From positions 69,203-101,202 of the forward strand of contig JAKFCW010000047.1 in assembly GCA_036676455.1 (NCBI GenBank): DNA of 32,000 nt. Direction: 5' to 3'. This document shows, in pieces, positions 4,819 through 24,389 of the stretch. The translations under genes were made by a program, and so were the position numbers. Numbering within the stretch: position 1 is the first letter of the stretch; every line of letters starts with the position of its first letter. This DNA comes from Candidatus Sericytochromatia bacterium. GTDB taxonomy: Bacteria; Cyanobacteriota; Sericytochromatia; S15B-MN24; UBA4093. The notes under the pieces were generated by a model. The model was not told the origin of the DNA. It saw only the letters and a program-made list of their open reading frames with translations, and made no database searches.

Positions 4819-5005
4819 GGGGGGACCTCCCTTCGTTGCACGTATCTCCTTTATCCCGCCAGGGGCTTAAGGCGAGCTGTCGCGCATGTTTCGCGCAGAT
4901 GAATCCGTTGCTTGAGAGCGCGCTTCATACCCGAGTAACACCCGGGCCATTCGACCTCAACACCCCCTGGCTAAGCTGGAGGCGCCCTTTTGTAAAGGAG
5001 GACCC

Positions 5006-6115: not shown

Positions 6116-6128
6116 CAAAGGAGTCGTC

Positions 6129-7304: not shown

Positions 7305-7312
7305 CCAAGCCC

Positions 7313-7357
7313 CTCAAGCGAAAGCCCCGCTCGTGATGAGCGGGGCTTTCGCTTGAG
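7313..7357. terminator. bidirectional stem-loop between convergent genes
   Basis: ctcaagcgaaagccccgctc (7313-7332) pairs perfectly with gagcggggctttcgcttgag (7338-7357) around a 5-nt loop. Confidence 0.7.
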
Positions 7358-7390
7358 GACGAGCGCTGAGGCTCGCTTGGAAGCACCAGG

Positions 7391-8422
7391 TTAGTTGATG
7401 GTGATCTTGTACTCGGTAAGCGGGTCCAGCTCCGTCACGCCGAGATCCGGAAAGACCTGACCATCGTACGAGTTGAAGTCCACGTTCGCCGTGGTGGGAC
7501 CCGCCAGATCAACCGTGACGTTGCGCACCTGGCCATTGACCAGGGTGATCGCTTGCTCGATACGGTTCGCCGCGGTACCGGCGGCGTCCTTCGTGACGAT
7601 ATGCAGCTTCCAGGTGCCCGCGTGCACGGGGCCGATCGTTTGAACCTGGCCACCAGCCAGGTTGAGCATGAGGGGGGAGGCAGGATCATCCACCCAGGCA
7701 TCGAACTTGTATCCGGTCGGCAACCCATTGAGCCTCAAGCTCACCCGTCCCCAAGGCTTCACGTAGTTGACGGATTCCGCCGGAATGGCGCCGCCATTCG
7801 CCCGCATGTACTGGCCGATCTTGACTCCGTCCACCAAGCTCGGATGCATGGCCAGCGGTCCCGTGACGGTGACGCCCCACAAGATCATGTCGTTCACCAG
7901 CTTCTGCACCTGGCTGACATTCGTACTGATGGCCATCGCCGCGTTCCCGTTCTCGAGCATGTTCGTGTACACCTCGGACGTGGCAGTGGTGGTCCACGAC
8001 AAGTCGACCTCGTTGGCACCGGGCTCGATGGTCTTCACCGCGCCCACCACCGCTCCGGAGACCTCCGAGTCATCGGTCCTCAGGGCAAAGGCCTTGAAAA
8101 CGCGGTTAGGGCCCATCGGGACGTTGAACTGGACAGAGCCCGTTCCGGCGGCGATGGAAATCGTCTCGGAGAGGGGCGTCACCATCCCGGGGCCCGTGAC
8201 CTCAACGCGGGCCTTGGTGATTTCATAGGTCGGAACCGTCTGGACGCCGAAGCTGGAACTCGTGATCTTCGGAGTGAAGGCGCCCAAGGAGATCGTGACC
8301 GGCGCCGTCTTGGTAGCCACCTGAGGCACCGAGCCCTGGTCGAGAGCCGTTGGAGCGAAAGGCTGGCATGCCGAGACCGACATGGCCGCTGCTGCCGCCA
8401 GGCTGAGTATGATGCGCTTCAT
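7391..8422 (-). CDS. lipoprotein of unknown function, same family as the 15.2-22.9 kb array
   Basis: 343-aa ORF with AAGGGGG upstream. The lipobox is AAMSVSAC. The N-terminal module is beta-rich (VTISLGAFTPKITSSSFGVQTVPTYEITKARVEVTGPG). The composition is natural, unlike the Arg-rich antisense ORFs. Confidence 0.8.
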   Translation of the reverse strand: MKRIILSLAAAAAMSVSACQPFAPTALDQGSVPQVATKTAPVTISLGAFTPKITSSSFGVQTVPTYEITKARVEVTGPGMVTPLSETISIAAGTGSVQFNVPMGPNRVFKAFALRTDDSEVSGAVVGAVKTIEPGANEVDLSWTTTATSEVYTNMLENGNAAMAISTNVSQVQKLVNDMILWGVTVTGPLAMHPSLVDGVKIGQYMRANGGAIPAESVNYVKPWGRVSLRLNGLPTGYKFDAWVDDPASPLMLNLAGGQVQTIGPVHAGTWKLHIVTKDAAGTAANRIEQAITLVNGQVRNVTVDLAGPTTANVDFNSYDGQVFPDLGVTELDPLTEYKITIN

Positions 8423-8499
8423 TGAGTACCCCCTTCCCCGGCTCGACCTGCGGTTCGACTTTGGCCGGGATTTTGCGATGTCGATGCTACGTAGTTATC

Positions 8500-8528
8500 T
8501 AGTTAACCTTACCATTGCTTGCTTCAAA
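8500..8528 (-). promoter_or_regulatory. candidate promoter for the 343-aa lipoprotein gene
   Basis: On the minus strand: TTGAAG (8528-8523), a 17-nt spacer, then TAACTA (8505-8500). It sits in the most A/T-rich patch of the 101-nt gap. Confidence 0.2.
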
Positions 8529-9294
8529 CGGCTCCACCATGAGCAAGAAGTCGCTCGGTATCGGCGTAAATTGCCAGGTAATACGGAACCGTCAGCCGCT
8601 TTTGATCCTCGCACTCGAGCACCCATCCCAGGGGATGCGATACCAATACCCGTCCGTACAGGTTGCCCAGGCGCAAGCCCTCTCCAGGCCTGACCTTTTT
8701 CAAGCCCCTTCCCAAGACGAGGCTGGACAGGAGCAAACCGGTGGGGACAGCGAGGAGCGCCGAGACCCAAGGGGCCCAGGTAGCAAGGACGCTGAGTTCC
8801 AGGGTGGCCGCCAGGGTCGAAAGCCCGAATTGCGCGGATAGCAAGGCCGTCGCGATGCAGAGGGGAGGAAGGGCGATCGCCCCTTGCGGAACGATCCGCA
8901 TCTGGCGCTCCAGCTTCCGTTGCGCCGCGTCCTCGAGCTTGGCGAGCAACTCCGCGAGCACCGCTGCCACCGTTTCGGGATCGTCAGTCTGATCGAGAGT
9001 TTGCGTGAGACTTCCCCACGGGTCCCCATCCGATGGCTCAACGGGTTCGATGAGTGGCTTGCCTCTGGTCAGGAAATCGAAGAGGCGAACCCTGGATCGG
9101 ACGCTGGCATCCGGATCCGAGACAGCATCGGGAAAAACGTAGGGATTCGGACGTGGAGCGAGCTCCGGCGCTTCCACCTTGAAGACGTAGGGACTTCGAC
9201 GCGGTAGGCCCTTGATCGTGTTCAGGTCGATGACGTTAGCCATGGGACGTGCCGCAGGCGGTAGATCGGAAGTTCGCTGAGGGACGGACATCAC
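8524..9294 (-). CDS. two-TM membrane protein of unknown function, last gene of the mot operon
   Basis: 256-aa ORF. GTG at 9294 or ATG at 9291 overlaps the motB stop. The N-terminal ~140 aa are Pro/Asp-rich and soluble. Two hydrophobic segments follow (AIALPPLCIATALLSAQFGLSTL, WVSALLAVPTGLLLSSLVLG), then a short C-terminal domain. Confidence 0.65.
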   Translation of the reverse strand: MMSVPQRTSDLPPAARPMANVIDLNTIKGLPRRSPYVFKVEAPELAPRPNPYVFPDAVSDPDASVRSRVRLFDFLTRGKPLIEPVEPSDGDPWGSLTQTLDQTDDPETVAAVLAELLAKLEDAAQRKLERQMRIVPQGAIALPPLCIATALLSAQFGLSTLAATLELSVLATWAPWVSALLAVPTGLLLSSLVLGRGLKKVRPGEGLRLGNLYGRVLVSHPLGWVLECEDQKRLTVPYYLAIYADTERLLAHGGAV

Positions 9295-10025
9295 GGGGCC
9301 TCCTTCGGTTCGACCACGGGAATGGTTGCCGGGCGAGACTCGGGATAGAGCCGGATCACGATCCTGCGGTTGCGCGCCTGATTCTCCGGAATCGGCTTGC
9401 CCGCAGCGTCACGGTTGGGAACCTTCGGGTGGATATCCGAGTAGCCTGCGGCCTTGAGGCGCGATTGCTCCACGTCGGCCTCCAGCATGAAGCGGATGAC
9501 GTTCGTGGCCCGCCGCGCGGAGAGCTCCCAGTTGGAGGGAAATTCGGCGGTGCGAATCGGGTTATCGTCCGTATGCCCCTCCACCTCGATGGTGTAGGAA
9601 CGGTAGGTTTCGTTCTTCAACTCCTCGGCGATCTCGGTGAAGGTAGGCTTGATCGTCGGCAACAGCTCGGCCTTGCCGCTGTTGAAGAGGATGTTGGACG
9701 AGAATTCGACTACCACGCCCTTCTTGTCCTGGCTGACCTCGACCTGCTTTTCAAGGCCCTTGCTCTCGACGATCCGCTCGATCTGCTGCTTGATCTCCGA
9801 AATCGGACGTGCCGTTTCCTTACCGGTAAAGTCCTTTTGAAGCTGGGCGGAGACCTGCTCGAAGGCGCTGATGTCGACCGTTGAGACCGCCAGCATCATG
9901 ATGAAGAGCGCCATCAGGTTGGTGATGGTGTCGGCGTACGTGATCAGCCAGCCCTCGTCCTCCTGAAGTCCGCTGGAGCGGTGGGATCCGAAGGGATTGC
10001 GGTTCTGGCCGAAAGGACTTGCCAT
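9291..10025 (-). CDS. motB: MotB-type stator subunit with an OmpA-like peptidoglycan-binding domain
   Basis: 244-aa ORF. The TM segment carries the conserved Asp (WLITYADTITNLMALFIMMLAV). The C-terminal OmpA-like motif is VEGHTDDNPIRTAEFPSNWELSARRATNVIRFM. Confidence 0.9.
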   Translation of the reverse strand: MASPFGQNRNPFGSHRSSGLQEDEGWLITYADTITNLMALFIMMLAVSTVDISAFEQVSAQLQKDFTGKETARPISEIKQQIERIVESKGLEKQVEVSQDKKGVVVEFSSNILFNSGKAELLPTIKPTFTEIAEELKNETYRSYTIEVEGHTDDNPIRTAEFPSNWELSARRATNVIRFMLEADVEQSRLKAAGYSDIHPKVPNRDAAGKPIPENQARNRRIVIRLYPESRPATIPVVEPKEAP

Positions 10026-10846
10026 CAGGTCCTCGCGGGGGTCTTAGCCCCCTTCGATGCCGCGAAGTGGTCGTAGTGGAAGGCGGGATCCATCAGCGCG
10101 TTCAAGCGATCCTGGACGTACAGGGGCGCCTTCTTCTGCGCGATGAGGACGATGCCCTCGAGTTGCATGTAGCGGCGGTGGCGCTGGATTTCCAGGATCT
10201 GCTGGGTCTTGGAGGCCGCCGGGATGAAGAGCAGGCGGGCCGCCATGACGCCATAGAGGGTGGCCAGGAGCGCCACGGCCATCGCGGGACCGATCTTGGA
10301 GGGGTCGGATCCCATGTTGGCCATCATGATGACCAGACCGATCAAGGTCCCCACCATCCCGAAGGCCGGCGCATGGCCACCCATCTGGTGAAGGATGGTG
10401 GCGGGAACCATGCGTCGCTGATGCTCCGACTCGATGAAGTCCCCCAGGAACAAGCGCAGGTCGGGCTCCTTGTAGCCGTTCATGAGCAGGGTCAGGGCGT
10501 ACTTCAAGAAGCCATCGAGCTTCTTTTTGGCGACCTCATCCTCGAGGGGACCGAGGCTCTGCTGGGTCGCGTAAGACCACTCGACCATCTGCTTGATGTC
10601 TGAGCGCAGGGTGCTGGGCTGGATCGGCTGCATGACGAAGATGCGGCCGAGCGTGACGAGCGCGCGCCAGACGTAGCGACTCCGCGCCCCGATCATCGCC
10701 GCGGCCACGGTGCCGCCGAAGATGATGGCAAACGGCTCCAAGCTCCAGAACATCGCGATGCTGCCGGAGTGCGCGACGATCGCCCAGCCGGTCAGGCCGA
10801 AGCCCAGGATGATTCCGAGGACGGTGGAGATCGAGATCATCGGCAT
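10025..10846 (-). CDS. motA: MotA/PomA-type stator channel subunit
   Basis: 273-aa ORF with GGAGG upstream. There are two N-terminal TM segments and a large cytoplasmic loop. The signature GGHAPAFGMVGTLIGLVIMM is present, and the last TM segment contains LLFIPAASK. Both conserved prolines are present. Confidence 0.9.
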   Translation of the reverse strand: MPMISISTVLGIILGFGLTGWAIVAHSGSIAMFWSLEPFAIIFGGTVAAAMIGARSRYVWRALVTLGRIFVMQPIQPSTLRSDIKQMVEWSYATQQSLGPLEDEVAKKKLDGFLKYALTLLMNGYKEPDLRLFLGDFIESEHQRRMVPATILHQMGGHAPAFGMVGTLIGLVIMMANMGSDPSKIGPAMAVALLATLYGVMAARLLFIPAASKTQQILEIQRHRRYMQLEGIVLIAQKKAPLYVQDRLNALMDPAFHYDHFAASKGAKTPART

Positions 10847-10855
10847 TTCAACCTC

Positions 10856-12013
10856 CTATCGGAACGACATGCCGATGGTGGCATGGTAGCTCATCCCGCC
10901 GTACGTCATCGAATTCGCATAGCCGCTGCCGGCTGGGGCCAGGCTGACGTCCTGCTGCGGCACGTAGGTGAGCCCGAGGTTCATGAAGAGGTCCGGCGTG
11001 AAGCGGATCAAGAAGCCTCCCTTTGCGGTGGAGGGCTGGCGCAACGCGTCTGCGAGCGAGATCGCGAAGCCCGGCCCTGCGTACAGGTTGACCACGCCGA
11101 GGTTGTCCTTGCCCCCGAAGAGCGGGTCGAGACGCATGAACAGCAAGGGGGAGACGTTGACCAGGCCGTGATAGAGCGAGAAGTCGACGCCGCCGCCCTG
11201 GATGTACTCGGCATCGATACCGACCGCGAGATTCTCCCAGAAGTAGGTGTTGCGGAGCGCCATCACGCCAGCGCTCAGCGAGAGATCCGCATGACGCGCG
11301 GGAACTCCGGCCGTGGACGAGACCCGGTCGGCGGCGAAGCCCGTCACGCCGGAATAAAGGTAGACGCCATTGTCCCGGGTCTTCCGCTCGAGTTCGGCGC
11401 GCTTGGCGGCCTCGGCCTTGCGGGCTTCTTCCTCCGCCTTGGCGCGCATGGCGGCGCCCTGCCGAACGGCGTTGAAGTCGTAGGCATAGCGATGCGTCCA
11501 GACGATCTCGCCATCCGAGGCGCGCACCAGCTTGAGATGAACCATGACCACCTCGTTGGTCACGAAGGGCGCGTACATGAGCACGGCATCCGCCCCGACG
11601 TTTCCGGCCAGATCGCGCAGGCGATCCAGCGACTCGATGGTCGTGCTGACCTGGAGCTCGGTAGGCGTCGAGACGATCTTGCGGACCTTAGACTCGCGCG
11701 ACTCCACCACCTTGAAGCGACGAAGCGGCAGCAAGAGCTCGTGAAGGCGGTTCTCGACGAGGAGATCCAGCTTGTCGGTCTCGGGGCGGCGGCGCTCATT
11801 GAAAAGAAAGATCCGCAATAGCGTGGGATCGATCTTGGTGATCTCCTCGGGAAGCGCCGGGATGATCTGCTCGGCAGCCTGACTGTAGTTCAAGAGATCC
11901 GTGACGAGGGGATGCAGGGCAGGCGGCTCGACCTCGGCCATTGCCGGCGACGCGACGCTAGTCAAGGCGAGCGAAAGCGCGATTCCTCCAGATAGTAGCC
12001 ACTTGGCGCTCAC
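10856..12013 (-). CDS. secreted protein: periplasmic alpha/beta domain, charged coil and C-terminal beta-barrel (putative outer-membrane component)
   Basis: 385-aa ORF with a GTG start and GGAGGAGG upstream. The signal peptide is ALSLALTSVASPAMA-EV. The coil is AAMRAKAEEEARKAEAAKRAELERK. The last ~190 aa show alternating hydrophobicity and are Gly/aromatic-rich, ending in ...YHATIGMSFR. Confidence 0.75.
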   Translation of the reverse strand: MSAKWLLSGGIALSLALTSVASPAMAEVEPPALHPLVTDLLNYSQAAEQIIPALPEEITKIDPTLLRIFLFNERRRPETDKLDLLVENRLHELLLPLRRFKVVESRESKVRKIVSTPTELQVSTTIESLDRLRDLAGNVGADAVLMYAPFVTNEVVMVHLKLVRASDGEIVWTHRYAYDFNAVRQGAAMRAKAEEEARKAEAAKRAELERKTRDNGVYLYSGVTGFAADRVSSTAGVPARHADLSLSAGVMALRNTYFWENLAVGIDAEYIQGGGVDFSLYHGLVNVSPLLFMRLDPLFGGKDNLGVVNLYAGPGFAISLADALRQPSTAKGGFLIRFTPDLFMNLGLTYVPQQDVSLAPAGSGYANSMTYGGMSYHATIGMSFR

Positions 12014-12016
12014 CGA

Positions 12017-12766
12017 TTACCTCCTCCGATTCCGAATCCAGTCAAGCGCTTGCTGCGCGTCCGAGAGCCGTGGGTCCAACTCGAGGGCCCGGACCCACCC
12101 TTCCTCCGCCTGGCGCTCCCGACCAAGCTTGAAGCAAATCGATCCCCGCATGGCATGCAGGTGCGCCACCTGGTCGTCCACGCCCAGCGCGGCATCGACG
12201 ACCTCCAGGGCACTCTGGTAGCGGCCCTGCTGGGCCAGGCGCGGAGCACGGTAGAGCGCGTCGGCGACGATCTGCAGGCGTTCCGAGCCCAGCTCACGCG
12301 ACGCCGGTATCGCCGGAGCCTTGGCAGCGGCCGGCATCGGCAGCTCCGCATTCTTCGGGGTGGGAGTGGGGGAGGCCTGCGCCTGCAACTCCTCTTCCGC
12401 ATACTGCAGCCATTCGTAGGGCACATGGCTGGCGCTGGGGGAAGGCATCGGCTCGGGAAGGGCGCTGGTGGCCGACTCCTTGGCGTCGGTGCTCGAGGCT
12501 TCAGGGGTCGGCGAGGCCGCGGGAATCGCCCCCGGCGCGGGAGATTTGTCCATCTCGATGCGCAGGAAGAAATCAGGTTGATTGGTATCCAAGAGGGAAT
12601 CCACGTCAACCGTTTCCAGCCCGCGCTTCAGGTGGATGACTCCCTCGCGCTGGCCGGAAACCGGCGACGTCAGGCCCTGCTGGATGAGGACGAGGGGAAG
12701 CGTGGCGACGATGGTCAGGCCGTAGGCGATCGCCCAGACGCGCCGACGGTTCGGCAGATTTGCCAT
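12017..12766 (-). CDS. inner-membrane-anchored periplasmic TPR protein
   Basis: 249-aa ORF with GGAGGAAA upstream. The positively charged N-terminus and TM segment are MANLPNRRRVWAIAYGLTIVATLPLVLI. A Pro/Ala/Ser linker leads to C-terminal TPR-like units (RLAQQGRYQSALEVVDAAL, HAMRGSICFKLGRERQAEEGWVRALELDP). Confidence 0.75.
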   Translation of the reverse strand: MANLPNRRRVWAIAYGLTIVATLPLVLIQQGLTSPVSGQREGVIHLKRGLETVDVDSLLDTNQPDFFLRIEMDKSPAPGAIPAASPTPEASSTDAKESATSALPEPMPSPSASHVPYEWLQYAEEELQAQASPTPTPKNAELPMPAAAKAPAIPASRELGSERLQIVADALYRAPRLAQQGRYQSALEVVDAALGVDDQVAHLHAMRGSICFKLGRERQAEEGWVRALELDPRLSDAQQALDWIRNRRR

Positions 12767-12768
12767 GG

Positions 12769-14613
12769 TTAGTTTCCTCCGGCTTGCGGAATCACCAGCA
12801 CGCGGGTGGTCTGGCGAATCCGGCTAAGCAAATCACGGCGCATGGCCTCCCGGGCCTCCGGGTTGGCATCCAGCAGAGACGGGCCCTTGAGGGCCTCCTC
12901 GACGACCATGCGGCCGCGCTCGTTGAGCGCACCAACGAGCGCGTTGAGCACGTCGGCCGGCGCATCGCGCAGCACCTCGGCGAGTTGCTCCTTGGGGAAA
13001 TCGCGGACCGCATCGCGCAGCACGTCCTTGGGGAGCTTCGGCAAGTCGTCGAATGCCACGTAGCTTTGCTTGACCTGCTTGAGCACCTGGGGGTTCTGGG
13101 TCGACAGCTCCTGCATGATGCGCCGCTCCATCTCCCGGTCGGAGTGGTCCAACAGGCCCACCAGCACGCCGATGCCGTTGGTGACGCCCGTCGAGAAGCG
13201 CGGCGCCTCCGACGCCTTGCTTGCAAGGTGAAGCGCGATGTCGTTGAAGGTCTCGAGGGGAATCTCGGAAAGCGCGCCCATGGCTGCGGTGACGGTTCCC
13301 AGCTCCCCGGGACTCAGCAGGTGCATCAGGCCGATCGCCCGCTGGGGAGGCAGCTGGGAGAAGGCCAGCGCCTGGACGCGTGGGGACTCGTCCTGGAGGA
13401 TGTAAATGATTTGCGAGTCGTCGAGCGTCTGAAGAAAGGCGAAAGGCTCGTTACGGCGCGTGCTCGTCCGAGAACCGGCCGTGTGGCGATCGCGCACGAT
13501 GGCGCGAATGGCCTCGCTGAGGGCCTGTTGCAACTCCTCGGCGGGAACGTCGGCACGCTCGAACTGCTTGAGCTCGATCGCCCGCCAGATTTCCTCCGAG
13601 ACGCCTGCGAAGAGGCGACGGCTCACGCCCGCCCCGAGGGTACGGGTCAGCAGCGAGGCCCGCTCCATGCCAAGTTCTTGACCGAGCAGCTGGTGCATGT
13701 AGCGCTCGGCAAGCTCGGGCTCGCTCAGGATCAGCATCGTCAACTCGTGGCGCAGCGGCTCGAGGTTGGGCCCCTGAGGCTCGGCCGGCGTGCTCTTGAG
13801 AGCCGAAGCCGCGTGTGCGGCCTGCGGTGCGAGGGAAGGCGCATCCGGACGACGGCGCGAACGCGTGAGCAGCCACCCCAAGCCCAGTCCGGCGCCGGCA
13901 GCCAGGACGGCCCACGCCCACGGCGGAAGGAGCGGAGAATCAGCCGTGCCGGCGGGAGTCGACGGGAAGTCGCGGCGCGTGATCTCGACGATCAGGTCCC
14001 GGGCGTAGGCATGATCCACCTTCTGGGCGACCATGTTGCGAATGAAGTCCTCATCCTGGCTCGTCAGGGAGGTGGGCAGCACGACAGAAACTTTCAAACG
14101 ATCGATCGACTGGGTTGGAGCCGGATCGTTCGGAGGAGCCACGGGCGCCGGATTCGGCAGATAGGGCATCGCCATGGAGGAAGGCGGCTCGAGCGTCTCA
14201 TCCTCACGCTGTCCCCCGAAGAGGCCCGGAAGGATCGGCGGCTCGTCGGCGCCACGTGTCGACAGAGCCGAGGGCCGCTGCGTCGGAAGCTGGGGCAGCA
14301 TCTGAGGCGCTTGCTGAGGGAGCGGCTGTTGCACGTAAGCGGGCCGCGAGCCGCGCTCTCCGCCCTCCTTGAGGATCGCCTTCACCTGCACGATGAAGCG
14401 GTCGGCGCCGAGGTAGGCGCTCAGGCCACGATCCAGGCTCTCCTCGAGGTAGCGCTCGTAGCTCAGCACTCCCAGCTCAGACTCCGATCGGGGAACTTCC
14501 GGCGGATTGAGCTGCGCGCTGGCGGCCATGGGAACGAGGGTCCCCGCCAGCAGCGCTCCAATAATGACGGCTTTTCGATTCTTCAACGGTACGCAACCTC
14601 GCAATTGGTTCAA
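12769..14613 (-). CDS. membrane protein: FliF-like periplasmic segments fused to a FliG-like cytoplasmic region (N, middle and C-terminal parts)
   Basis: 614-aa ORF. The start is uncertain: TTG at 14613 or TTG at 14586. There are two TM segments. FliF-like patterns are YERYLEESLDRGLSAYLGADRFIVQVKA and IDRLKVSVVLPT...ARDLIVEITRRDF, the second lying directly before TM2. FliG-like stretches are FLQTLDDSQIIYILQDESPRVQALAFSQLPPQRAIGLM and VAFDDLPKLPKDVLRDAVRDFPKEQLAEVLRDAPADVLNALVGALNERGRMVVEEAL. Confidence 0.8.
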   Translation of the reverse strand: MNQLRGCVPLKNRKAVIIGALLAGTLVPMAASAQLNPPEVPRSESELGVLSYERYLEESLDRGLSAYLGADRFIVQVKAILKEGGERGSRPAYVQQPLPQQAPQMLPQLPTQRPSALSTRGADEPPILPGLFGGQREDETLEPPSSMAMPYLPNPAPVAPPNDPAPTQSIDRLKVSVVLPTSLTSQDEDFIRNMVAQKVDHAYARDLIVEITRRDFPSTPAGTADSPLLPPWAWAVLAAGAGLGLGWLLTRSRRRPDAPSLAPQAAHAASALKSTPAEPQGPNLEPLRHELTMLILSEPELAERYMHQLLGQELGMERASLLTRTLGAGVSRRLFAGVSEEIWRAIELKQFERADVPAEELQQALSEAIRAIVRDRHTAGSRTSTRRNEPFAFLQTLDDSQIIYILQDESPRVQALAFSQLPPQRAIGLMHLLSPGELGTVTAAMGALSEIPLETFNDIALHLASKASEAPRFSTGVTNGIGVLVGLLDHSDREMERRIMQELSTQNPQVLKQVKQSYVAFDDLPKLPKDVLRDAVRDFPKEQLAEVLRDAPADVLNALVGALNERGRMVVEEALKGPSLLDANPEAREAMRRDLLSRIRQTTRVLVIPQAGGN

Positions 14614-14677
14614 CTCTTTCCCCAGGATAGCGCTCGGCGCGCGATTCAGCGGTGACCCTCGTCATAGCCGGGTGCGG

Positions 14678-14687
14678 TATGATAACA
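14678..14687. promoter_or_regulatory. candidate overlapping divergent -10 elements
   Basis: The plus strand reads TATGAT (14678-14683), upstream of GGAGG (14699-14703) and the ATG at 14712. The minus strand reads TGTTATCAT (14687-14679), an extended -10 type element upstream of the 614-aa gene. No convincing -35 was found on either strand. Confidence 0.2.
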
Positions 14688-14711
14688 CCAGATAGTTCGG
14701 AGGCCATTCTC

Positions 14712-15227
14712 ATGCTTGTCACTCGCCCCCTCTGGGGACTTATCTGCGGTACGCTCTTGCTGAGCGGATTCAACTCTCCGGCCTGGGCCCAGGCGGCTCG
14801 GAACGCTGAGCGATCCCCCATCGAGTTCCGTCTTCACCACCCCGAGGCCACGGCATCGACGGACGTGGATATCTGGGCGCCGGCCGATCCCCGCGTGCTT
14901 CACGACACCCAGCAGGATCTCGCGGCCATCCAGCAGTCGGTCTCGCCGTCCCGAGACTCGCGCCCATCCTTCACCGACGCGCTCCTCACGGGGATGGCCA
15001 CGCTCCCGGTCATCGGCCAGTTCGCCAACCACGACTGGATGAAGGGCCTCGTCACCTTGGGCACCGCCGCCGGCCTCACGACCGCCATCGTGATCGGCAA
15101 CGACCGGAACGACCCGCAGCTCGTGCGGCTGGGAACCCTGGGCCTCTACCCCCTGGCGGTTTTCGGAACCGTGGACGCCCTCGTCACCCGCCAGAAACGG
15201 GAAGCCAAGCCTTCGGTTCACCCATAA
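14712..15227 (+). CDS. secreted or membrane protein of unknown function
   Basis: I chose the internal ATG at 14712, which has GGAGG 8 nt upstream. The signal peptide is MLVTRPLWGLICGTLLLSGFNSPAWA-QA. Two hydrophobic segments lie near the C-terminus (LLTGMATLPVIGQF, GLVTLGTAAGLTTAIVIG). Confidence 0.6.
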   Translation: MLVTRPLWGLICGTLLLSGFNSPAWAQAARNAERSPIEFRLHHPEATASTDVDIWAPADPRVLHDTQQDLAAIQQSVSPSRDSRPSFTDALLTGMATLPVIGQFANHDWMKGLVTLGTAAGLTTAIVIGNDRNDPQLVRLGTLGLYPLAVFGTVDALVTRQKREAKPSVHP

Positions 15228-15242
15228 ACCACCGGTCACGAC

Positions 15243-16001
15243 TTAGATCTTCACCTGGGTCAGCACTGCCTCCGCACGCAACCCTGCGACCGTGAACTGG
15301 GCCTTGACGAGCCCCACCCCGGGAGCGAACCAGGCCTCGGTCGGTTCGCCATGGTCCTCGACGTAAAGCACCTTCCAGCACCCGGGAAACGTCGCCACCT
15401 CCGTCTCGACGCGTTCCAATCCGATCAGACGCGCCTTTCCGTTGATTGACGGCCAGTACATGCCCGGCGTCGCACGTTGCGGCATCATGGGCTTGCCGTC
15501 GACCTGGATCCAATCCTCGTCAACGCGGGCCTTCCATGCTTGATTCCCCGAAAGCCACCCCACCGTGAAGCGCGATTCCACCTCCAGCTCGAAACCCTGG
15601 TTCTTCGGCTCAAACCTCTGCACTGTCAGCTCCATGCGGCCTTGGGGAAACCAGCCATCGATAGCACTTAGGCGGTAATTCAAGACCGTGTTCGCACTGA
15701 AAACCATGGGCCCCTGGACGAACGTCCGTTGCACGGCCTCCGACGTCCCCCCTGCAGCCCCCTCTCCGGGAGTCGAGGGTTCTGCAACGGGAGCGTCTTT
15801 GGCTCGGTCGCTGGTGGCCCCGTCTTCTTTCCGCTTTTCCGGCTTGTCTGCCAGGGGATCAACACTCCATTCCGCCGGAGGCTGAAGCATCGTTCCCGTC
15901 TCCTGCCATTCGGCAGGCAAGCCTACACCCGAACTTGGGCATCCTGCGAGGGGCCAAGCGATCAGAAAGGCGATGGCAAACCGCGCGACCGTCCAATTCA
16001 T
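15243..16001 (-). CDS. lipoprotein of unknown function, last gene of the lipoprotein array
   Basis: 252-aa ORF with an ATGA overlap with the upstream gene. The lipobox is AWPLAGC. A low-complexity linker leads to a beta-rich domain ending in EAWFAPGVGLVKAQFTVAGLRAEAVLTQVKI. Confidence 0.75.
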   Translation of the reverse strand: MNWTVARFAIAFLIAWPLAGCPSSGVGLPAEWQETGTMLQPPAEWSVDPLADKPEKRKEDGATSDRAKDAPVAEPSTPGEGAAGGTSEAVQRTFVQGPMVFSANTVLNYRLSAIDGWFPQGRMELTVQRFEPKNQGFELEVESRFTVGWLSGNQAWKARVDEDWIQVDGKPMMPQRATPGMYWPSINGKARLIGLERVETEVATFPGCWKVLYVEDHGEPTEAWFAPGVGLVKAQFTVAGLRAEAVLTQVKI

Positions 16002-17164
16002 GGGGTGGATTGGCCATCCGTTGGCACGATGAAAGGAATCAGGGCTGTGCGCCCAAACGCGTTCGCGCCACCATACGACCCGGATCCCTCCCAGTACTTG
16101 AGCACGTAGTAACGAGTCCCCGGATGGACCGTTTCGTCGAGCGTGAACGAGACCCGGGTCGTCATGGTCTCGGGGTCATGGGCCGAAGTCTCGTAACGCT
16201 GCAAGGGGACCAGACTCGAATTCGACTCCCTGACCGCGGAATCATAGATCTCGATGGCGTACTTCGGATCCGTCAGCCCGGTCTTGGCCGGAAACTCGAA
16301 AGTCACCTCCCGGGACTCCAGCACCGAATTCATCGCGGGAGTGGCTGCCGAGAGATCCCAACTCAAATCGAATTCGACCTCCGGGACCTCCGTTTGCGTC
16401 GCCGAAACCTGGACGGGCTCGGAGATGGCAAACTGGGGTCGGCGAGGCATGGCCGTGGCCACTGAGATCGTGCCCTCGAAGCCGGAATAGCCGGAGTAAG
16501 TGGGATACGAGCTGTGGTATCCCAGGTGGTAGGCCCCATCGCTCAGGTTGAAAAAGTTTGCGGCCCCCGCCGGGGTCACCTGGGTCGATCCGTAACTGTA
16601 AAAGTAGAACGGCGTGACACCCTCGCGCCGGAACACGCCCATCGAGAGCTGCTCACCAGTGGCTTCTCCGCCGATCACGCGACCGTAAAGCTGACTGCCC
16701 AGGACGTTTTGATCCACCAATGGAGTCAAAGGGCTGTATGGCATCACCGTGCTCTTGCCGGGGGTGTCGAGCAGGATGTGAAGCGAGGCGTAGCTGCGCC
16801 GTCCAGGCATGAGCATGGCCATGGTGTAGCCGTACCCAACGACCTCTCCGGATGCGAGCATGGCGCTGACCTTGATCGAGGCTTCCCCGGAAGGCAACCC
16901 TGAGAGGTCGATATAGTTGCTCTCAGCTTTCGGCAGGGTGCGCGTCTCCGTCCGACCATCCTCGAGCGTCAACTCGACTTTCAACTCGGCAAGATCCTCG
17001 GCGATGACCTGAGCCTTCCTCCCGAAGTCGACGCTCATGCGCAACGATGCGCCCTGGTGCTGGGACGAAACCAATGAAGGCATGGCTGCCGGGGCGCAGC
17101 CAGTTAGCCAAAGCGATGCCGCCACTGCGAGGGCGAAGGCCCGGGACGTGTGGTTTATCGTCAT
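15998..17164 (-). CDS. lipoprotein of unknown function
   Basis: This is the 399-aa ORF in the track. I prefer the start at 17164 (MTINHTSRAFALAVAASLWLTGC, lipobox LTGC). Alternative starts are at 17173 and 17197. The N-terminal beta module is ASLRMSVDFGRKAQVIAEDLAELKVELTLEDG. Confidence 0.75.
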   Translation of the reverse strand: MTINHTSRAFALAVAASLWLTGCAPAAMPSLVSSQHQGASLRMSVDFGRKAQVIAEDLAELKVELTLEDGRTETRTLPKAESNYIDLSGLPSGEASIKVSAMLASGEVVGYGYTMAMLMPGRRSYASLHILLDTPGKSTVMPYSPLTPLVDQNVLGSQLYGRVIGGEATGEQLSMGVFRREGVTPFYFYSYGSTQVTPAGAANFFNLSDGAYHLGYHSSYPTYSGYSGFEGTISVATAMPRRPQFAISEPVQVSATQTEVPEVEFDLSWDLSAATPAMNSVLESREVTFEFPAKTGLTDPKYAIEIYDSAVRESNSSLVPLQRYETSAHDPETMTTRVSFTLDETVHPGTRYYVLKYWEGSGSYGGANAFGRTALIPFIVPTDGQSTP

Positions 17165-17165
17165 G

Positions 17166-18074
17166 TCAATCATTCGCGACCACCCCTCCCCCTTCAAATA
17201 CGACCCCTTCCCGCATCAACGTCGAAACCACTCCGTTCTCGTCGCTGATGACTTCCTTGAGAAGGCCTTCCGATGCCCCGTACCAGCGATCCACGGTCAC
17301 CTCTGTCCATGTCTGCGCGTCGCCGGGATACTGGTTTGTCCAGCGATAATGGCGGACCTTGGTGCTCGGCGCTAGCAACTCGGAGTCCACGTAAACCGCG
17401 TGAGTCGGGATGGCGGTCCAGGAATCCGTCGGGTAAGATTCCGACACTCCTGCTCCAATTCGACGATAAACCGTCGAATACTGCACCTGAAAGGTCACCG
17501 CGACCCGCTGGGAGTCACGCGTAAGCCAGAAGAGCAATTGCTGCTGGTTCGGATAATACGCGGCAAAATCCGAATCGAATCCGTCTGCATGGCTCAGACG
17601 GCGGTAATCAAGCAGGCGTTGCCCAAAGCTGACACCAAGATCGAGTGCCGGCTTACCCCCGTGGAGTAGGCTGAAACTGACAGGTGTCTCCTCGCCCGGC
17701 AAGAGGACGACGGCCATTTGCTGCCTATCGTGCATCGCGTGGGTCTCGGCGTCGCGCGCCGTCACGGTTACCGTGACGGGACCGGGCACGAGATTCGCGA
17801 TTACAGTCGGTTCGTCGAGTTGAAGGACCCGGGGTTCAACCACGACATTGCGATACTCCCAGCCCGAGTACGCAACTTCGAGGAGCACCTCGATGCCTGC
17901 GGTGCTCTGGAGCTGGCGAGGCACAGAGACAATCGCTCTCATGCGACTCGTCTCGGCACTGGCGATCTCGGTCGCAGGTTGCAGAGTCGTCCCCGTCGTG
18001 GTCACGCCCTCGCAGCCCAGAAGGAACATGGTGGGCAGGGCCAAGAGCAGACCCCATCGATTCATCTTGCGCAT
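17166..18074 (-). CDS. lipoprotein of unknown function
   Basis: This is the 316-aa ORF in the track. I prefer the start at 18074 (MRKMNRWGLLLALPTMFLLGC, lipobox LLGC), 4 nt after the upstream stop. The beta module is RMRAIVSVPRQLQSTAGIEVLLEVAYSG. Confidence 0.75.
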   Translation of the reverse strand: MRKMNRWGLLLALPTMFLLGCEGVTTTGTTLQPATEIASAETSRMRAIVSVPRQLQSTAGIEVLLEVAYSGWEYRNVVVEPRVLQLDEPTVIANLVPGPVTVTVTARDAETHAMHDRQQMAVVLLPGEETPVSFSLLHGGKPALDLGVSFGQRLLDYRRLSHADGFDSDFAAYYPNQQQLLFWLTRDSQRVAVTFQVQYSTVYRRIGAGVSESYPTDSWTAIPTHAVYVDSELLAPSTKVRHYRWTNQYPGDAQTWTEVTVDRWYGASEGLLKEVISDENGVVSTLMREGVVFEGGGVVAND

Positions 18075-18078
18075 TACC

Positions 18079-19566
18079 CTACCCTTCCTCGGACGGTGCG
18101 GCCGGCGTGAAGTCAATCAACTCGTAGGTGGTCACCTGGCGCTGGCGAGGGAGGGGGTCCCGTTTGCCTTCGTGGGAATAGTGGTATCCACCGACGCGAG
18201 TCTCCACGGAGCGCACGACGCCCACGCCCTCGACCAGCCAAACCTCACGGGTGACTCCGGATTCGGGGCTGGTGAAATAGTGCTTCGCCAGTCGTTGACC
18301 GAGGGCCGGAACGTTGAGCGTCACCTCAGGCAAGGTCTGGATGCCGTTAGTGGAACTCAAGCGAAAGATCGGACTCAGCTCGGAAGCGGACCCGTTCGCC
18401 AAGTCGAACGCCCGCAAGGTCGAGTAGCTGTAGGACTCATATTGCCCGCGCCCGTCGTCATCGAGCATCTCCACCCGCATCGTGCGGCTCCAGGACGACG
18501 TGCCCCCTCCCTGAGACTGCGGATAAGTGTAAGTTGTGCTCACAAGGTAGTTCCAGCGCGTACCGGCGGCCAGGGGGAGTGCCTCGAAAGGCGGCTTCCA
18601 AAGGTCCTGCCCCACCCAGCGAGTGGGGTTCTGGGGTGGGGCATCCGGAACCTCGATGAGTTCCACGTCTAGCGAGGCGGTGGCCTGCGTGGGCATCGAG
18701 AAGTCGATACTACGTGACGTGACGCCGTCCACCATGACCATGAACTTCGGCTGGAGCTTGTCGGGCTTGGTGAAGTAATCGGCAAAACCGGAGAGCAGGT
18801 CATGGGGGACCGTCAGGGTGAGTTGCGTGTCGGAATCGACGGTGACGGCGGTTTCCGGAAGCGACCTGCGCATCATTCCAAACCCTCCTGATGGCACTGG
18901 CATCGGGAAGATGAGGTTTGAATAAGGCAGGTACTGGTAATTCAGCCCCACGTAAGCCAGGGTTTTCCAGTTCTTGGACTTGCCAAAGCCAGAGCCGGCG
19001 ACGATGATCCGGTCTCCAACCCGCCAGTCGCTCTTGGACAGCGAGGTGATCACCGGCGCGTCAACGGCCACGAGCTCCATGCCGACCGTCGCGAAGAGGC
19101 CAGGCACGACGTCGATGCGCTTCTCGTCCGAAGCCACGACCTGATTCTGAGCGTCACGAACTTCTGCCTGAATGAGCAGATCCGCCTGGACCGGAAGGTC
19201 CCATCTCAAGGAACCGTAAGTGTTGAACCCGGCGGGGTAAGGGCCGTAGTAATAGGGATCCGCCTGGCGGTAGATCTCCACGGGGGCGATCGCCTTTCCC
19301 GACGAATCAATCGCCTGCGATCCATCCGCGCGCGTCAGCGTAACGACCGCCTTGATCGCCCGGTTGGGAATCGCCTGGAGGGAGGAACCGGAATCCGGCC
19401 AGCGAATGCCCAGCCCCAGGCCGCCGACTCCAGCCTGTGTGTGCGCCTCCGTTTGCCCCGTGCCGATCGCATTCGAGGTCCACTGAGTGCCAACAGGAAC
19501 CGTGCAACCCAACAGGGCTGAAACGAGGCCGAAGGCGATCCACGTCTTGAAATCTCGCTGTCTCAT
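18079..19566 (-). CDS. lipoprotein with an IPT/TIG-like Ig domain
   Basis: This is the 504-aa ORF in the track. I prefer the start at 19566 (MRQRDFKTWIAFGLVSALLGC). The N-terminal module is GLGIRWPDSGSSLQAIPNRAIKAVVTLTRADG. The IPT/TIG-like stretch is PVITSLSKSDWRVGDRIIVAGSGFGKS. The C-terminal module is EVWLVEGVGVVRSVETRVGG. Confidence 0.8.
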   Translation of the reverse strand: MRQRDFKTWIAFGLVSALLGCTVPVGTQWTSNAIGTGQTEAHTQAGVGGLGLGIRWPDSGSSLQAIPNRAIKAVVTLTRADGSQAIDSSGKAIAPVEIYRQADPYYYGPYPAGFNTYGSLRWDLPVQADLLIQAEVRDAQNQVVASDEKRIDVVPGLFATVGMELVAVDAPVITSLSKSDWRVGDRIIVAGSGFGKSKNWKTLAYVGLNYQYLPYSNLIFPMPVPSGGFGMMRRSLPETAVTVDSDTQLTLTVPHDLLSGFADYFTKPDKLQPKFMVMVDGVTSRSIDFSMPTQATASLDVELIEVPDAPPQNPTRWVGQDLWKPPFEALPLAAGTRWNYLVSTTYTYPQSQGGGTSSWSRTMRVEMLDDDGRGQYESYSYSTLRAFDLANGSASELSPIFRLSSTNGIQTLPEVTLNVPALGQRLAKHYFTSPESGVTREVWLVEGVGVVRSVETRVGGYHYSHEGKRDPLPRQRQVTTYELIDFTPAAPSEEG

Positions 19567-19576
19567 GCTTCGTCCC

Positions 19577-21301: not shown

Positions 21302-21315
21302 GGCTGTTACCTCGG

Positions 21316-23096: not shown

Positions 23097-24389
23097 TTAG
23101 AACTTGAAGGTGTTGGAGAGCGTGTAAGAGGCGCCCCGGGCGTTGCCGCCCACGCCATTGAGGGCCGCCATGGCAAAGTCCAGGCGGAAGAGGGGCATGT
23201 CCAGCCCCAGGCCGGTGGCGAACGTCAGGCCACGATCTCCCCCCAGGGCGATACCCCCGCGGACCGGGAGCCAGTCGAGCAGGCGCAGCTCGGAGCCGAC
23301 CCGCAGTTCCGGCGTGCGCGAAACGCCGAAGCCATCGCCGTAGCCGAGTTGCAGCTCGCCGCTCAGCGTGAACGGATCCCAGGGCTTGAAGGCCGCTGCG
23401 AGGCGCAGGTAGGGCGGTAGGACGATCTCCGAGGGGCCTTCCTGAGTCCGGGATTCCTTGAGGGCATCGCGGGTGACGGCCCCGAAGTCGGTCACGGAGC
23501 CCGAGGCGTCCACGACCGAGAAAGGCTCCACCTTGAGGGTGTAGGTGGTGACGTCGCGCCGGCTCCAGCTCATGACCCCGACGTTGCCAAGGATGGCGCC
23601 CCAGCGCAGGCGATCGCCCACCCTCCCGGCAGCTCCGAAGTCGGCCGCGATGCCGTTCCCACCCGTGGCCCATTCGGTCGATAGCCGCGCGTCGGCCGAG
23701 TACCGGCCGGACTCATCAACGGCCAGCAGCGTCCCGCGGGCCTCGCGGACACGGCCGTAGGCCAGTCCCCGCAGGTAACGCAGGTTCATGCCCAGGCTCG
23801 ATGTCTCACCCATCGGAAAGGCGAACGAGGAGCCGAGAGAGGCGACTGCCGTCGCCGTTGCCCCGCCCAGCGCATCGATCCCGACGTTGGGGACGGAGGC
23901 GTTGCCGTTGAGCGCAAGGGCGATCAGGTCCCGAGGCAGATCGAGCCCCTTGGTGTCCGCCACCGCATCCAGGAAGACGCCCGTTCGCGCGCTCGGCATG
24001 GACAGGGCCATCGAGGTGCCTCCGTCGAACAGGAAGCGCCATCCGGTCGGCGGCAAGGCCTCGAGCACACCGGCGACGTTGGTGGGCTCGATCGCCTGGG
24101 TCGAGATCAAGCCGGCAAGCTCGCCGAAGGACAAGACGTTGTTCCCGAGGGCCAGGTTCAGGTTGGGCAGCAGCGTGAGCGAGAGGCGATCGCGACGCGA
24201 CTCGAGCCCCAGCAGGGCCGGGTTCACGATCATGGCGTCGGCGTCCATGGCGATCGCCGCGTTGGCCCCGGCCATACCCGCACTCCGGGCGTTGCCATAG
24301 GCGTACGCAGGGAGCGCGGGAGCAAGGCTCGTCAGCATGGCGGAGATAGCGGCCAGGGTGCCGCGCGACCGGAAACGGGAAAGGCTCAC
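23097..24389 (-). CDS. outer-membrane beta-barrel protein, FadL/PorV-like
   Basis: 430-aa ORF. The GTG start forms a GTGA overlap with the upstream gene. The signal peptide ends in ALPAYA-YG. The N-terminal motif is NARSAGMAGANAAIAMDADAMIVNPALLG. Gly/aromatic-rich alternating strands run throughout. The C-terminus is ...YTLSNTFKF. Confidence 0.8.
   Translation of the reverse strand: MSLSRFRSRGTLAAISAMLTSLAPALPAYAYGNARSAGMAGANAAIAMDADAMIVNPALLGLESRRDRLSLTLLPNLNLALGNNVLSFGELAGLISTQAIEPTNVAGVLEALPPTGWRFLFDGGTSMALSMPSARTGVFLDAVADTKGLDLPRDLIALALNGNASVPNVGIDALGGATATAVASLGSSFAFPMGETSSLGMNLRYLRGLAYGRVREARGTLLAVDESGRYSADARLSTEWATGGNGIAADFGAAGRVGDRLRWGAILGNVGVMSWSRRDVTTYTLKVEPFSVVDASGSVTDFGAVTRDALKESRTQEGPSEIVLPPYLRLAAAFKPWDPFTLSGELQLGYGDGFGVSRTPELRVGSELRLLDWLPVRGGIALGGDRGLTFATGLGLDMPLFRLDFAMAALNGVGGNARGASYTLSNTFKF

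Follow-up and report, generated by a model that had tools for sequence, protein, structure and literature searches.

A stretch of 32,000 nucleotides (hereafter the window) from a Candidatus Sericytochromatia bacterium (GenBank assembly GCA_036676455.1, contig JAKFCW010000047.1, positions 69,203 to 101,202 of the forward strand) was analyzed computationally, with a focus on one minus-strand gene whose product reads as a shortened FliF joined to a complete FliG. This gene is the first of six minus-strand genes, whose junctions overlap by 1 to 4 bases or leave gaps of less than 10 bases. Positions refer to the window, and lengths are given in amino acids (aa).

12769..14613, minus strand: short-FliF/FliG fusion gene, 614 aa from the first TTG (open reading frame, Pfam, and homologues)
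12017..12766, minus strand: TPR protein, 249 aa (Pfam TPR_2, 27.6 bits; start codon overlapping the stop of the fusion gene)
10856..12013, minus strand: secreted FlgO-like protein, 385 aa (signal peptide, FlgO-like N-domain, charged helix, C-terminal half ending ...GMSFR)
10025..10846, minus strand: MotA, 273 aa (Pfam MotA_ExbB, 75 bits)
9291..10025, minus strand: MotB, 244 aa (MotB_plug 56.8 bits, OmpA 64.8 bits, transmembrane Asp in ..GWLITYADT..)
8524..9294, minus strand: membrane protein, 256 aa (start overlaps the motB stop; C-terminal hydrophobic segments)

The 614-aa open reading frame (ORF) had been described in an initial annotation made from the sequence alone; it exists as stated, and the protein is conserved in homologues, so the reading frame does not result from chance. 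A 100% identical annotated protein (P0001) comprises 605 aa and begins 9 residues further in. Three TTG codons (14613, 14604, and 14586) are candidate starts, two of them preceded by a purine-rich stretch. On the opposite strand, a 631-aa ORF (12760..14655, plus strand) was considered as the real gene and rejected, as no homologues or domains were found for it and conservation lies with the minus-strand ORF; it is a shadow of the high G+C content (~65%). The fusion gene had also been placed next to motAB. All three genes do belong to the same tightly overlapping operon, but motAB begin two genes downstream and are not directly adjacent. Neither scans for promoters and terminators (8000-15600) nor an Rfam scan across the whole window gave any match.

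A homologue search returned 22 close homologues of the fusion protein. Among 17 homologues, the residues Y52, E53, R54, E57, E58, S59, L60, Q76, V77, R172, P180, D189, N193, R214, and F216 are invariant, and both periplasmic stretches quoted in the initial annotation are real and highly conserved. An AlphaFold2 (AF2) model built on 17 homologues had a mean predicted local distance difference test score (pLDDT) of 67, with ordered parts at ~80-90. The parts of the protein, in which RBM stands for ring-building motif and TM for transmembrane, are as follows (all on the minus strand).

14515..14613, residues 1-33: putative signal peptide of the Sec type (basic n-region, then a hydrophobic segment 15-33 ending A-S-A/Q; from sequence)
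14368..14469, residues 49-82: RBM3a-like helix and strand (YERYLEESL...FIVQVKA; AF2 and hhalign)
14110..14367, residues 83-168: Pro-rich insert at the beta-collar position (predicted disordered, pLDDT <50)
14221-14232, residues 128-131: L-P-G-L motif, near-invariant, within the collar-position insert
13963..14109, residues 169-217: RBM3b-like strand-helix-strand (IDRLKVSVVLP...EITRRDF; AF2 and hhalign)
13861..13929, residues 229-251: single TM helix, equivalent of FliF TM2 (AF2 helix 231-250)
13672..13761, residues 285-314: helix pair that matches the far C-terminal end of FliF (hhalign)
12787..13674, residues 314-609: complete FliG-like part (hhalign, phmmer, Foldseek, Pfam), with FliG_N-like ~314-388, FliG_M ~389-470, FliG_C ~502-601, and a torque helix with R566 and E572/E573

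Taken in this order, the parts support a reading of the protein as FliF (RBM3a - insert - RBM3b - TM2 - C-terminal tail) directly joined to FliG (N-M-C). The matching pieces are colinear with E. coli FliF 235-268, 370-436, and 522-551 and then with FliG 5-322, in line with the earlier proposal of a reduced FliF part covalently joined to FliG. From the topology proposed at that time, ~195 periplasmic residues, one TM helix, and ~360 cytoplasmic residues were retained, while the N-terminal segment was reassigned from a first TM helix to a probable signal peptide.

The cytoplasmic half was assigned to FliG. In Pfam, the window protein matched FliG_M with 31.3 bits (cut-off 25) and FliG_C with 38.3 bits (cut-off 23.3), and residues 389-613 align end to end with T. 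maritima FliG-MC (1lkv, phmmer E 3.8e-14). A cytoplasmic profile of 134 family members aligned to residues 5-322 of the 331 residues of E. coli FliG (hhalign probability 99.9, E 3.6e-33). The 13 best PDB matches in Foldseek were all FliG, with A. aeolicus full-length FliG covered over 319 of 321 residues; these were followed by FliF, PrgK, and EscJ chains, mixed with unrelated folds, at E 0.002-2. Pfam FliG_N of the window protein is marginal (24.3 against 25) and misplaced. However, among 67 diverse relatives FliG_M was found in all, FliG_C in 66, and FliG_N in 50 (best E 1.6e-31), and all three FliG domains are covered when these relatives are taken together with the hhalign range and the Foldseek coverage. 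The colinearity of the ~350 cytoplasmic residues with FliG and the match of the FliG C-terminal domain, both proposed initially, were thus borne out. A domain of MgtE-type Mg2+ transporters, which had been named as the generic alternative, was rejected, since MgtE_N remained sub-threshold while FliG_M and FliG_C exceeded their gathering scores. Orthology to flagellar FliG is another matter: the NCBIfam fliG equivalog TIGR00207 gave 45.8 bits against a cut-off of 226.7, and the sequence scores point to a divergent, paralogue-like family rather than to an orthodox FliG. Likewise, the region compared with the FliM-binding EHPQ motif does lie in a FliG_M domain above threshold, but the motif is only partly kept (D-E-S-P-R in the window); within the family, its Glu (E409) is kept almost without exception (124 of 134), whereas H, P, and Q are variable. 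The two aromatic positions of an FxF at the start of FliG_M are kept in 129 and 131 of the 134 members, and G480 in 129.

For the periplasmic half, the relation to FliF was established at the level of the deep family. With the deep N-terminal profile, the beta2-alpha2-beta3 part (residues 166-223; AF2 strand 169-179, helix 185-198, strand 207-213) aligned to FliF 370-436 at P 5.4e-8, and the alpha1-beta1 piece alone (AF2 helix 49-68 and strand 74-82, pLDDT ~86) to E. coli FliF 235-268 at P 4.7e-4. The hhalign target was an alignment of E. coli and Aneurinibacillus FliF, and reversed and shuffled FliF controls gave P >= 0.13. Residues 285-314 aligned to residues 522-551 of the 552 residues of E. 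coli FliF with a modest P of 1.3e-4 (shuffled controls P >= 0.22). In flagella, this C-terminal tail of FliF binds FliG_N. At low stringency, the alignment was colinear over FliF 226-472, through TM2. BLASTP of the N-terminal half against Aneurinibacillus FliF reached only E 0.038, over RBM3b and TM2.

At the level of single sequences, the Pfam family YscJ_FliF_C was the sole family matched by the N-terminal halves of close members (9 of 12, sub-threshold). It was matched by 20 of the 67 diverse members with a best E of 7.5e-21, and some proteins exceeded the gathering score over the whole 147-position profile, among them the relative P0034 (33.4 bits) and an unfused protein at locus L016 (40.5 bits). 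Residues 373-482 of E. coli FliF matched P0034 and the Vibrio protein P0039 directly in phmmer. Further traits common to the family and FliF are an RGD...F motif and a Trp preceding the TM helix; R, G, and D are kept in 117, 129, and 131 of the 134 members, with RDL in the window clade. Consequently, the proposed relation of the periplasmic part to FliF held, as did the comparison of the second quoted stretch with the FliF segment preceding TM2 (FliF 370-436). The first stretch, in contrast, had been likened to the FliF RBM2 pattern LEGELARTI...ARVHL, and profile alignment places it on RBM3a instead.

The remaining parts of FliF are those that the protein does without. YscJ_FliF (PF01514), which covers the RBM1/RBM2 region, had no match in the window protein, and among the 67 relatives only the full-length fusion P0152 matched it. 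Rather than the two TM helices that flank the periplasmic region in FliF, a single TM helix (231-250) follows it here, and the N-terminal segment reads as a cleavable signal peptide replacing FliF TM1, RBM1, and RBM2. An A-x-A-Q or similar cleavage-type site is kept among the aligned homologues. The RBM3-like domain is interrupted after its first strand, as it is in FliF, where the beta-collar splits RBM3 into RBM3a and RBM3b (domain scheme in PMC10655999). Within the disordered insert of the window protein, L, P, and G of the L-P-G-L motif are each kept in 126-127 of the 134 members, and the motif pairs with V-P-G-A-L in the collar loop of E. coli FliF in a MAFFT alignment, which carries no statistic.

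The family extends well beyond the close homologues. A profile search of 1.84 billion cluster representatives yielded 3371 matches at E <= 0.001 and 94 at E <= 1e-30, and 133 of the best 150 listed representatives have at least 480 aa. Most of the long representatives inspected have an N-terminal hydrophobic segment, a hydrophobic helix at 200-300, and a FliG-like match in the C-terminal ~350 residues, while identity to the window protein drops to ~18-20%. Repeating the homologue search with the alignment of 134 sequences added no further relatives to the 22 close ones. Named carriers include Candidatus Sericytochromatia, metagenome-assembled genomes (MAGs) labeled as cyanobacteria, gammaproteobacterial MAGs, and the cultured Vibrio nigripulchritudo; most members come from metagenomic contigs, and the taxonomic range is known from a handful of names. 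In databases, the family carries the names 'flagellar motor switch protein FliG' or 'FliG C-terminal domain-containing protein', and in an NCBIfam scan no curated model claimed it. In the cluster of P0039 (V. nigripulchritudo), a 134-aa fragment (P0197) was named 'flagellar biosynthesis/type III secretory pathway M-ring protein FliF/YscJ' by JGI and the full-length members are named FliG, and each half has thus been recognized separately by annotation pipelines.

A split form of the protein occurs as well. At L016 (419-3227), motB is followed by a 382-aa short FliF and then a 310-aa FliG, the start of which overlaps the preceding stop. The short FliF consists of a signal peptide, the RBM3 domain matched by YscJ_FliF_C, a TM helix, and a FliF-like tail, and its unfused C-terminus reads ...NPETATNILNNWM. 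Eight other profile matches of ~304-311 aa run from just past the FliF-tail helices to the end and may be further unfused FliG-like partners.

The gene neighborhood provided the second line of evidence. The fusion gene and four partners, encoding the TPR protein, the FlgO-like protein of ~375 aa, MotA, and MotB, occur together in 9 of 13 contexts and in four gene orders, with identities to the window protein down to ~20%.

Window: fusion, TPR, ~375-aa, MotA, MotB
L001, Ca. Sericytochromatia CBMW_12, 61% identity: window order (ORFs matched by size and position, without domain search)
L003, MAG labeled Pantanalinema: window order
L005, metagenome contig: window order as far as the contig end
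L008, Gammaproteobacteria MAG: MotA, MotB, ~375-aa, TPR, fusion
L009, metagenome contig: fusion, ~375-aa, TPR, MotA, MotB
L011, metagenome contig: ~375-aa, TPR, fusion, MotA, MotB
L013, Saccharospirillaceae/Pseudomonadales MAG: same order as L011
L014, Vibrio nigripulchritudo chromosome AP027045.1: same order as L011

The V. nigripulchritudo context was read through P0189, a cluster mate of P0039, and the contig of L004 is too short to judge linkage to motAB. As stated initially, no other flagellar gene lies nearby, neither in the 32-kb window nor in the other family contexts; genes for fliM, fliN, flhA, fliPQR, rod, hook, and flagellin were absent from all 13 contexts read.

Starting with a membrane anchor or signal, the TPR protein continues with a small N-domain, which is conserved, and a linker of variable sequence, Pro-rich or acidic, and closes with a pair of TPRs at its C-terminus. 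An orthologue is present in every module locus, and the versions in L008, L009, L011, L013, and L014 have a lipobox Cys. For the ~375-aa protein, FlgO (PF17680) was matched by 6 of 8 orthologues (best E 2.4e-7), with the window copy at E 0.056 and 13.7 bits against 22.6. It also shows weak similarity to LpoB, and all orthologues end in an aromatic residue; its C-terminal half looks like an outer-membrane beta-barrel. The best NCBIfam matches of MotA were flagellar motor protein, PomA, and MotP, all below their equivalog cut-offs, and its best PDB matches were C. sporogenes MotA (6ysf/8ucs, E 9e-29) and PomA (E 7e-28), both over the full length. MotB gave NCBIfam matches of the MotD/MotB/MotS type. 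The plug, the TM Asp, the OmpA-like peptidoglycan-binding domain, and the likeness to MotA/PomA are hallmarks that place the stator of the module in the flagellar class as defined in PMC12505986.

Beyond the five genes, neighbors vary by locus and include housekeeping genes, an exopolysaccharide export cluster, a GGDEF regulator, and an AsmA-like gene. At L008, a Sel1/SPOR protein precedes motA, and the module is followed (12614-18819) by a BBP2_2 porin, a Wza-like Poly_export protein, a Wzz/GNVR tyrosine-kinase-type protein, and Wzy_C, an exopolysaccharide export set. In V. nigripulchritudo (L014), a response regulator with a GGDEF domain (6953-8176) lies before the module and a 1307-aa AsmA/DUF748 protein (13419-17342) after it, which hints at possible cyclic di-GMP control and an envelope context. 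L007 (10001-13709) encodes a 771-aa member on a 2.1-Mb contig with no TPR, FlgO-like, or MotAB gene nearby, followed by a KAP-family P-loop NTPase; this member may represent a different use of the same rotor-like protein.

Such a small gene set could also be what is left of a lost flagellum, decaying and without present function. The reduced gene content would fit this, as would the divergence of EHPQR, of the equivalent of FliG K264, and of the clade's equivalent of MotA R90. However, the genes are intact and translationally coupled, the five genes stay together from Sericytochromatia to Vibrio at ~20% identity and in differing orders, and motifs are near-invariant across 134 sequences. The near-invariance of LPG, RGD, FxF, and G480 points to purifying selection, and we regard a functionless remnant as very unlikely, the least probable of all explanations considered.

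The contact between rotor and stator was considered residue by residue. In E. coli, MotA R90 pairs with FliG D289 and MotA E98 with FliG R281. The Arg followed by an acidic pair that had been noted on the torque helix is present (R566 and E572/E573). At the position of FliG R281, 120 of the 134 members and all ten paired loci have R or K, and an acidic residue stands at the position of MotA E98 in the window and in most module MotAs. At the R90 and D289 positions, L011, L013, and L014 have Arg and Asp/Glu, respectively, and R90 is matched by Arg in L008, too. In the window clade, these positions are Gln and Ala, with the acidic pair one position earlier; the FliG R297 equivalent is not kept. 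The co-pattern of R90 and D289 covers about two independent lineages, L008 and L009 do not fit it, and their co-retention can serve as a hint, not a test, of rotor-stator pairing.

Taking the evidence together, we propose, at a probability of roughly 60%, that the protein, a natural fusion joining a shortened FliF to a complete FliG, acts as the rotor in a self-contained, filament-less rotor-stator module. Confidence differs between the parts of this proposal. The identity of the protein and of the module, which follows from homologous domains in colinear order, from their conservation, and from the linkage of the genes in distant taxa, is held with high confidence, and coupling between rotor and stator is considered probable. 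In the proposed mechanism, the RBM3 domains would assemble the fusion protein into an inner-membrane ring with a FliG ring on its cytoplasmic face; the RBM3 of FliF forms the S-ring (bioRxiv 10.1101/2024.07.30.605930). Stators of the MotA5B2 type, anchored to peptidoglycan, would conduct ions, push the torque helix of FliG_C, and turn the ring, while the TPR and FlgO-like proteins would form a periplasmic or outer-membrane part, either as stator scaffold or as receiver of the output. What the protein lacks of FliF is exactly the portion housing the export gate (RBM1/2) and the ordered beta-collar by which the rod is gripped. Without these portions, and with no genes for FliM/FliN, export, rod, hook, or filament alongside the module, the machine would be filament-less. 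In its widest form, that of a distinct, free-standing, ion-driven rotary machine (RBM3 ring, FliG, MotAB, and scaffold) driving an envelope or surface process, the proposal is tentative, with odds slightly short of even. Neither a secretion system nor an axle or filament would be needed by such a machine, which would derive from the flagellar motor by reduction or be a surviving relative of the precursor of that motor.

Several findings weigh against this proposal. Whether a free-standing ring would form and rotate is evenly balanced on the sequence evidence, and the disordered insert at the collar position means that a rigid FliF-like S-ring and collar may not form. The degenerate EHPQR motif fits the absence of FliM, yet it marks a divergence from working rotors. 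The window clade has Gln at the position of MotA R90, and the equivalent of FliG K264 is kept in this clade only and not in the wider family. L007 and L010 are without adjacent motAB, and the absence of other flagellar genes refers to the window and the contexts read and not to whole genomes. For the N-terminal half, the window protein reached 13.7 bits on YscJ_FliF_C (PF08345; profile positions 94-144) against a cut-off of 23.8, a close-family HMMER profile found no FliF or SctJ among PDB sequences but only a chance match to Ulp1 (E 1.1), and the N-terminal model alone gave no Foldseek match at E <= 0.001. Its best match (E 0.05) was a tie between FliF RBM3 and the unrelated C-terminal domain of MamB, and the fold alone therefore cannot decide on kinship to FliF.

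The findings on the N-terminal half would also suit a periplasmic domain unrelated to FliF, that is, a generic alpha/beta (ferredoxin-like) domain on a membrane-anchored FliG paralogue. The close-family HMMER profile, however, missed FliF because the family is too shallow, and the deeper profile with hhalign succeeded. Against a generic domain stand this profile-profile match with its clean controls and two further colinear FliF pieces, the members and the split relative that exceed the YscJ_FliF_C gathering score over the whole profile, the direct phmmer matches of FliF 373-482, and the RGD...F motif and Trp before the TM helix, placed as in FliF. This explanation is largely refuted, and only a slight chance is left to it.

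Natural fusions of FliF and FliG are not confined to this family. P0152 (L015, 6147-8756) is a natural full-length fusion of 869 aa with YscJ_FliF, YscJ_FliF_C, and the FliG N, M, and C domains. Its gene sits between fliE and fliH, with flgB, flgC, flgK, flgL, and fliS nearby. The cluster of P0152 contains three near-identical members of 869 aa, and the protein could be a genuine natural counterpart of laboratory fusions or reflect a shared frameshift. The initial annotation had raised the possibility that the window gene, too, is an ordinary FliF-FliG fusion of a flagellar operon. P0152 shows what a merely flagellar fusion looks like, and by this comparison the window family, with no RBM1/RBM2 and in non-flagellar neighborhoods, is different.

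The same comparison bears on a broader possibility, namely that the protein serves as FliF and FliG of a genuine flagellum, reduced or unusual in its make-up, the other genes of which are located elsewhere in the genome. All recognizable parts of the module are homologues of flagellar motor components, a fusion in an ordinary flagellar operon exists, and engineered FliF-FliG fusions form MS-rings (PDB 8z4d; PMC11481574). In addition, the gene search covered the window and not the rest of its genome. On the other side, the protein is without RBM1 and RBM2, which surround the export gate, and without an ordered collar, and its TIGR00207 score is far from the cut-off. The 13 contexts are devoid of other flagellar genes, whereas P0152 is embedded in them. 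The module moreover occurs in V. nigripulchritudo, which, as a Vibrio, presumably has a fliF and fliG of its own for the polar flagellum. A flagellar role of this kind is therefore judged improbable.

The main rival to a rotary module is a non-rotary force transducer, similar to TonB or TolA, in which the protein would work as a monomer or in small oligomers, with the stator acting on its tethered FliG domain, and pass movement across the membrane and via the Pro-rich LPGL segment to the TPR and FlgO-like partners. Its output might be polysaccharide export, lipid transport, or movement of surface proteins. The long, Pro-rich, disordered insert does resemble the linkers by which TonB and TolA span the periplasm, and the near-invariant LPG could dock a partner such as the TPR domain. 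A Pro-rich linker is also found in the TPR partner itself, whose versions in L008, L009, L011, L013, and L014 are lipoproteins of the outer-membrane type, and genes of envelope systems are found next to the module (Wza/Wzc/Wzy in L008, AsmA-like in L014). However, these neighbors are inconsistent between loci, and a monomer would need neither the complete FliG with its torque-helix Arg nor the RBM3 domain, both of which are strongly conserved. Furthermore, coupling in TonB and TolA runs via a TM helix of the partner and not via a cytoplasmic FliG-like domain. Although this transducer is the strongest of the rivals, we consider it unlikely and retain the rotor-stator module as the preferred interpretation.

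Apart from the module, the window contains further genes. The sixth operon gene encodes the 256-aa membrane protein, which had no Pfam match. It shows 33% identity (E 2e-12) to the product of the gene after motB in CBMW_12 and is absent from the distant module loci, and it is possibly a clade-specific operon member. The following gene was found further upstream of the fusion gene.

23097..24389, minus strand: DUF5723 outer-membrane-type protein, 430 aa (Pfam DUF5723, E 1.1e-11)

A DUF5723 gene adjoins the fusion gene divergently in L003 (8410-9735) and L004 (697-2022), and the association recurs in the window clade only; the protein is perhaps FadL-like. Genes for 433 aa in L005 and 427 aa in L001 resemble it in size and position only and are not assigned to DUF5723, and the gammaproteobacterial loci showed no gene of this type. 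In the window, the DUF5723 and fusion genes are separated by a cluster of six consecutive overlapping genes (15243-22908, minus strand) for secreted proteins or lipoproteins of 252-574 aa, several with LxGC lipoboxes. Five of the six proteins were scanned and had essentially no Pfam match, the last one showing weak Big_2 and CarboxypepD_reg. The cluster appears absent from this position in CBMW_12, where the 427-aa ORF directly precedes the fusion gene.

Genes of the Tad/Flp-pilus type flank the region, with a T2SSE ATPase (29891-31444) and two T2SSF proteins (28956-29963 and 27980-28954) on one side and a ParA/MinD-like ATPase (3338-4555) and a T2SSF-like protein (2630-3325) on the other, all on the minus strand. 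A functional link between the Tad pilus genes and the module was considered and rejected, as the adjacency is restricted to the window and CBMW_12, where ORFs upstream of the module were matched by similar size without domain search, and none were among the called genes of the distant loci. Finally, a 449-aa NHL-repeat beta-propeller is encoded at 5955-7304 on the plus strand (NHL, E 3.8e-35), overlapped by antisense ORFs at 4925-6406 and 6027-7277 on the minus strand, and an NHL/SGL protein is also located at the edge of L003.

The initial annotation did not recognize the arrangement as a described system, and this agrees with the searchable full-text literature, outside which most subscription journals lie: it yields engineered FliF-FliG fusions and work on general stator evolution only, no description of the family or the module, and no statement on whether Sericytochromatia have flagella. 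By sequence, all parts of the module belong to known families. The usual view treats FliG, FliF, and flagellar-type MotAB as components of a single organelle. If our proposal is true, a rotor-stator pair can be, or once was, used alone, and the module would be the counterpart of the injectisome, with the motor kept and the export apparatus lost. This opens the question of how a rotary motor and a type III secretion system were joined in the flagellum. With one rotor protein and one stator, the module would be a minimal natural system for studying the assembly of RBM3-only rings, the coupling of FliG and MotA without FliM/FliN switching, and the recruitment of stators by TPR and FlgO-type scaffolds. 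Since it is present in the cultured V. nigripulchritudo, genetics and cryo-electron tomography are directly feasible. In genomes of non-flagellated lineages, on the other hand, FliG-type names could mislead the inference of motility.

For comparison with known systems, the canonical flagellar motor is the closest reference. The window protein is colinear with pieces of FliF 226-552 and then with FliG 5-322, and the stator of the module likewise has a plug and a peptidoglycan-binding domain, with the equivalents of R281 and E98 mostly kept. The differences are that the rotor is a single polypeptide with a signal peptide in place of TM1/RBM1/RBM2, that the collar position is Pro-rich and disordered and EHPQR degenerate, and that no genes for FliM/N, export apparatus, rod, hook, or filament accompany the module. 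Engineered FliF-FliG fusions (the Salmonella deletion-fusion and Vibrio FliFG, PDB 8z4d/8z4g) have the same junction of FliF C-terminus and FliG N-terminus, and 8z4d was among the sequence matches of the window protein. These fusions assemble S-rings (PMC11481574). They are, however, laboratory constructs with full-length FliF in a normal flagellum, whereas the window protein is natural, without the N-terminal half of FliF, and part of a separate module. P0152 shares the natural junction and was recovered by the same family profile, but with its 869 aa and RBM1/2 it constitutes the FliF and FliG of its own flagellum.

More elaborate flagellar motors offer parallels for the partner proteins. 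TPR or Sel1-type proteins recruit stators in motors of the Vibrio and Campylobacter type. Similar to the Vibrio H-ring (FlgO/FlgP/FlgT) and T-ring (MotX/MotY) and to Campylobacter PflA/PflB, the module has FlgO-like and TPR proteins beside its stator. No FlgP, FlgT, or MotY was found with the module, and the TPR protein matched no MotX or Pfl model in NCBIfam. In addition, L and P rings are missing as points of attachment. In Vibrio, FlgO is a lipoprotein of the outer membrane and makes up a 58-fold ring within the H-ring (bioRxiv 10.64898/2025.12.02.691832), while the module protein of ~375 aa has an extra barrel-like C-terminal half and its window copy is without a lipobox.

Outside the flagellum, ExbBD-TonB, TolQR-TolA, GldLM, AglRQS-Glt, and ZorAB likewise combine an ion motor of the MotA/ExbB family with a dedicated partner for non-flagellar work at the envelope. 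These machines use the generic, non-flagellar stator class and have no FliG-like partner (classification in PMC12505986), whereas the stator of the module belongs by its features to the flagellar class and its partner is a FliF/FliG homologue, presumably contacted on the cytoplasmic side. The injectisome, finally, is related to the flagellar basal body in a similarly reduced form, with RBM rings (SctJ/SctD) as its base, and PrgK and EscJ were among the fold matches of the window protein. It keeps the export apparatus and drops the torque function of FliG and MotAB, and the module does the reverse.

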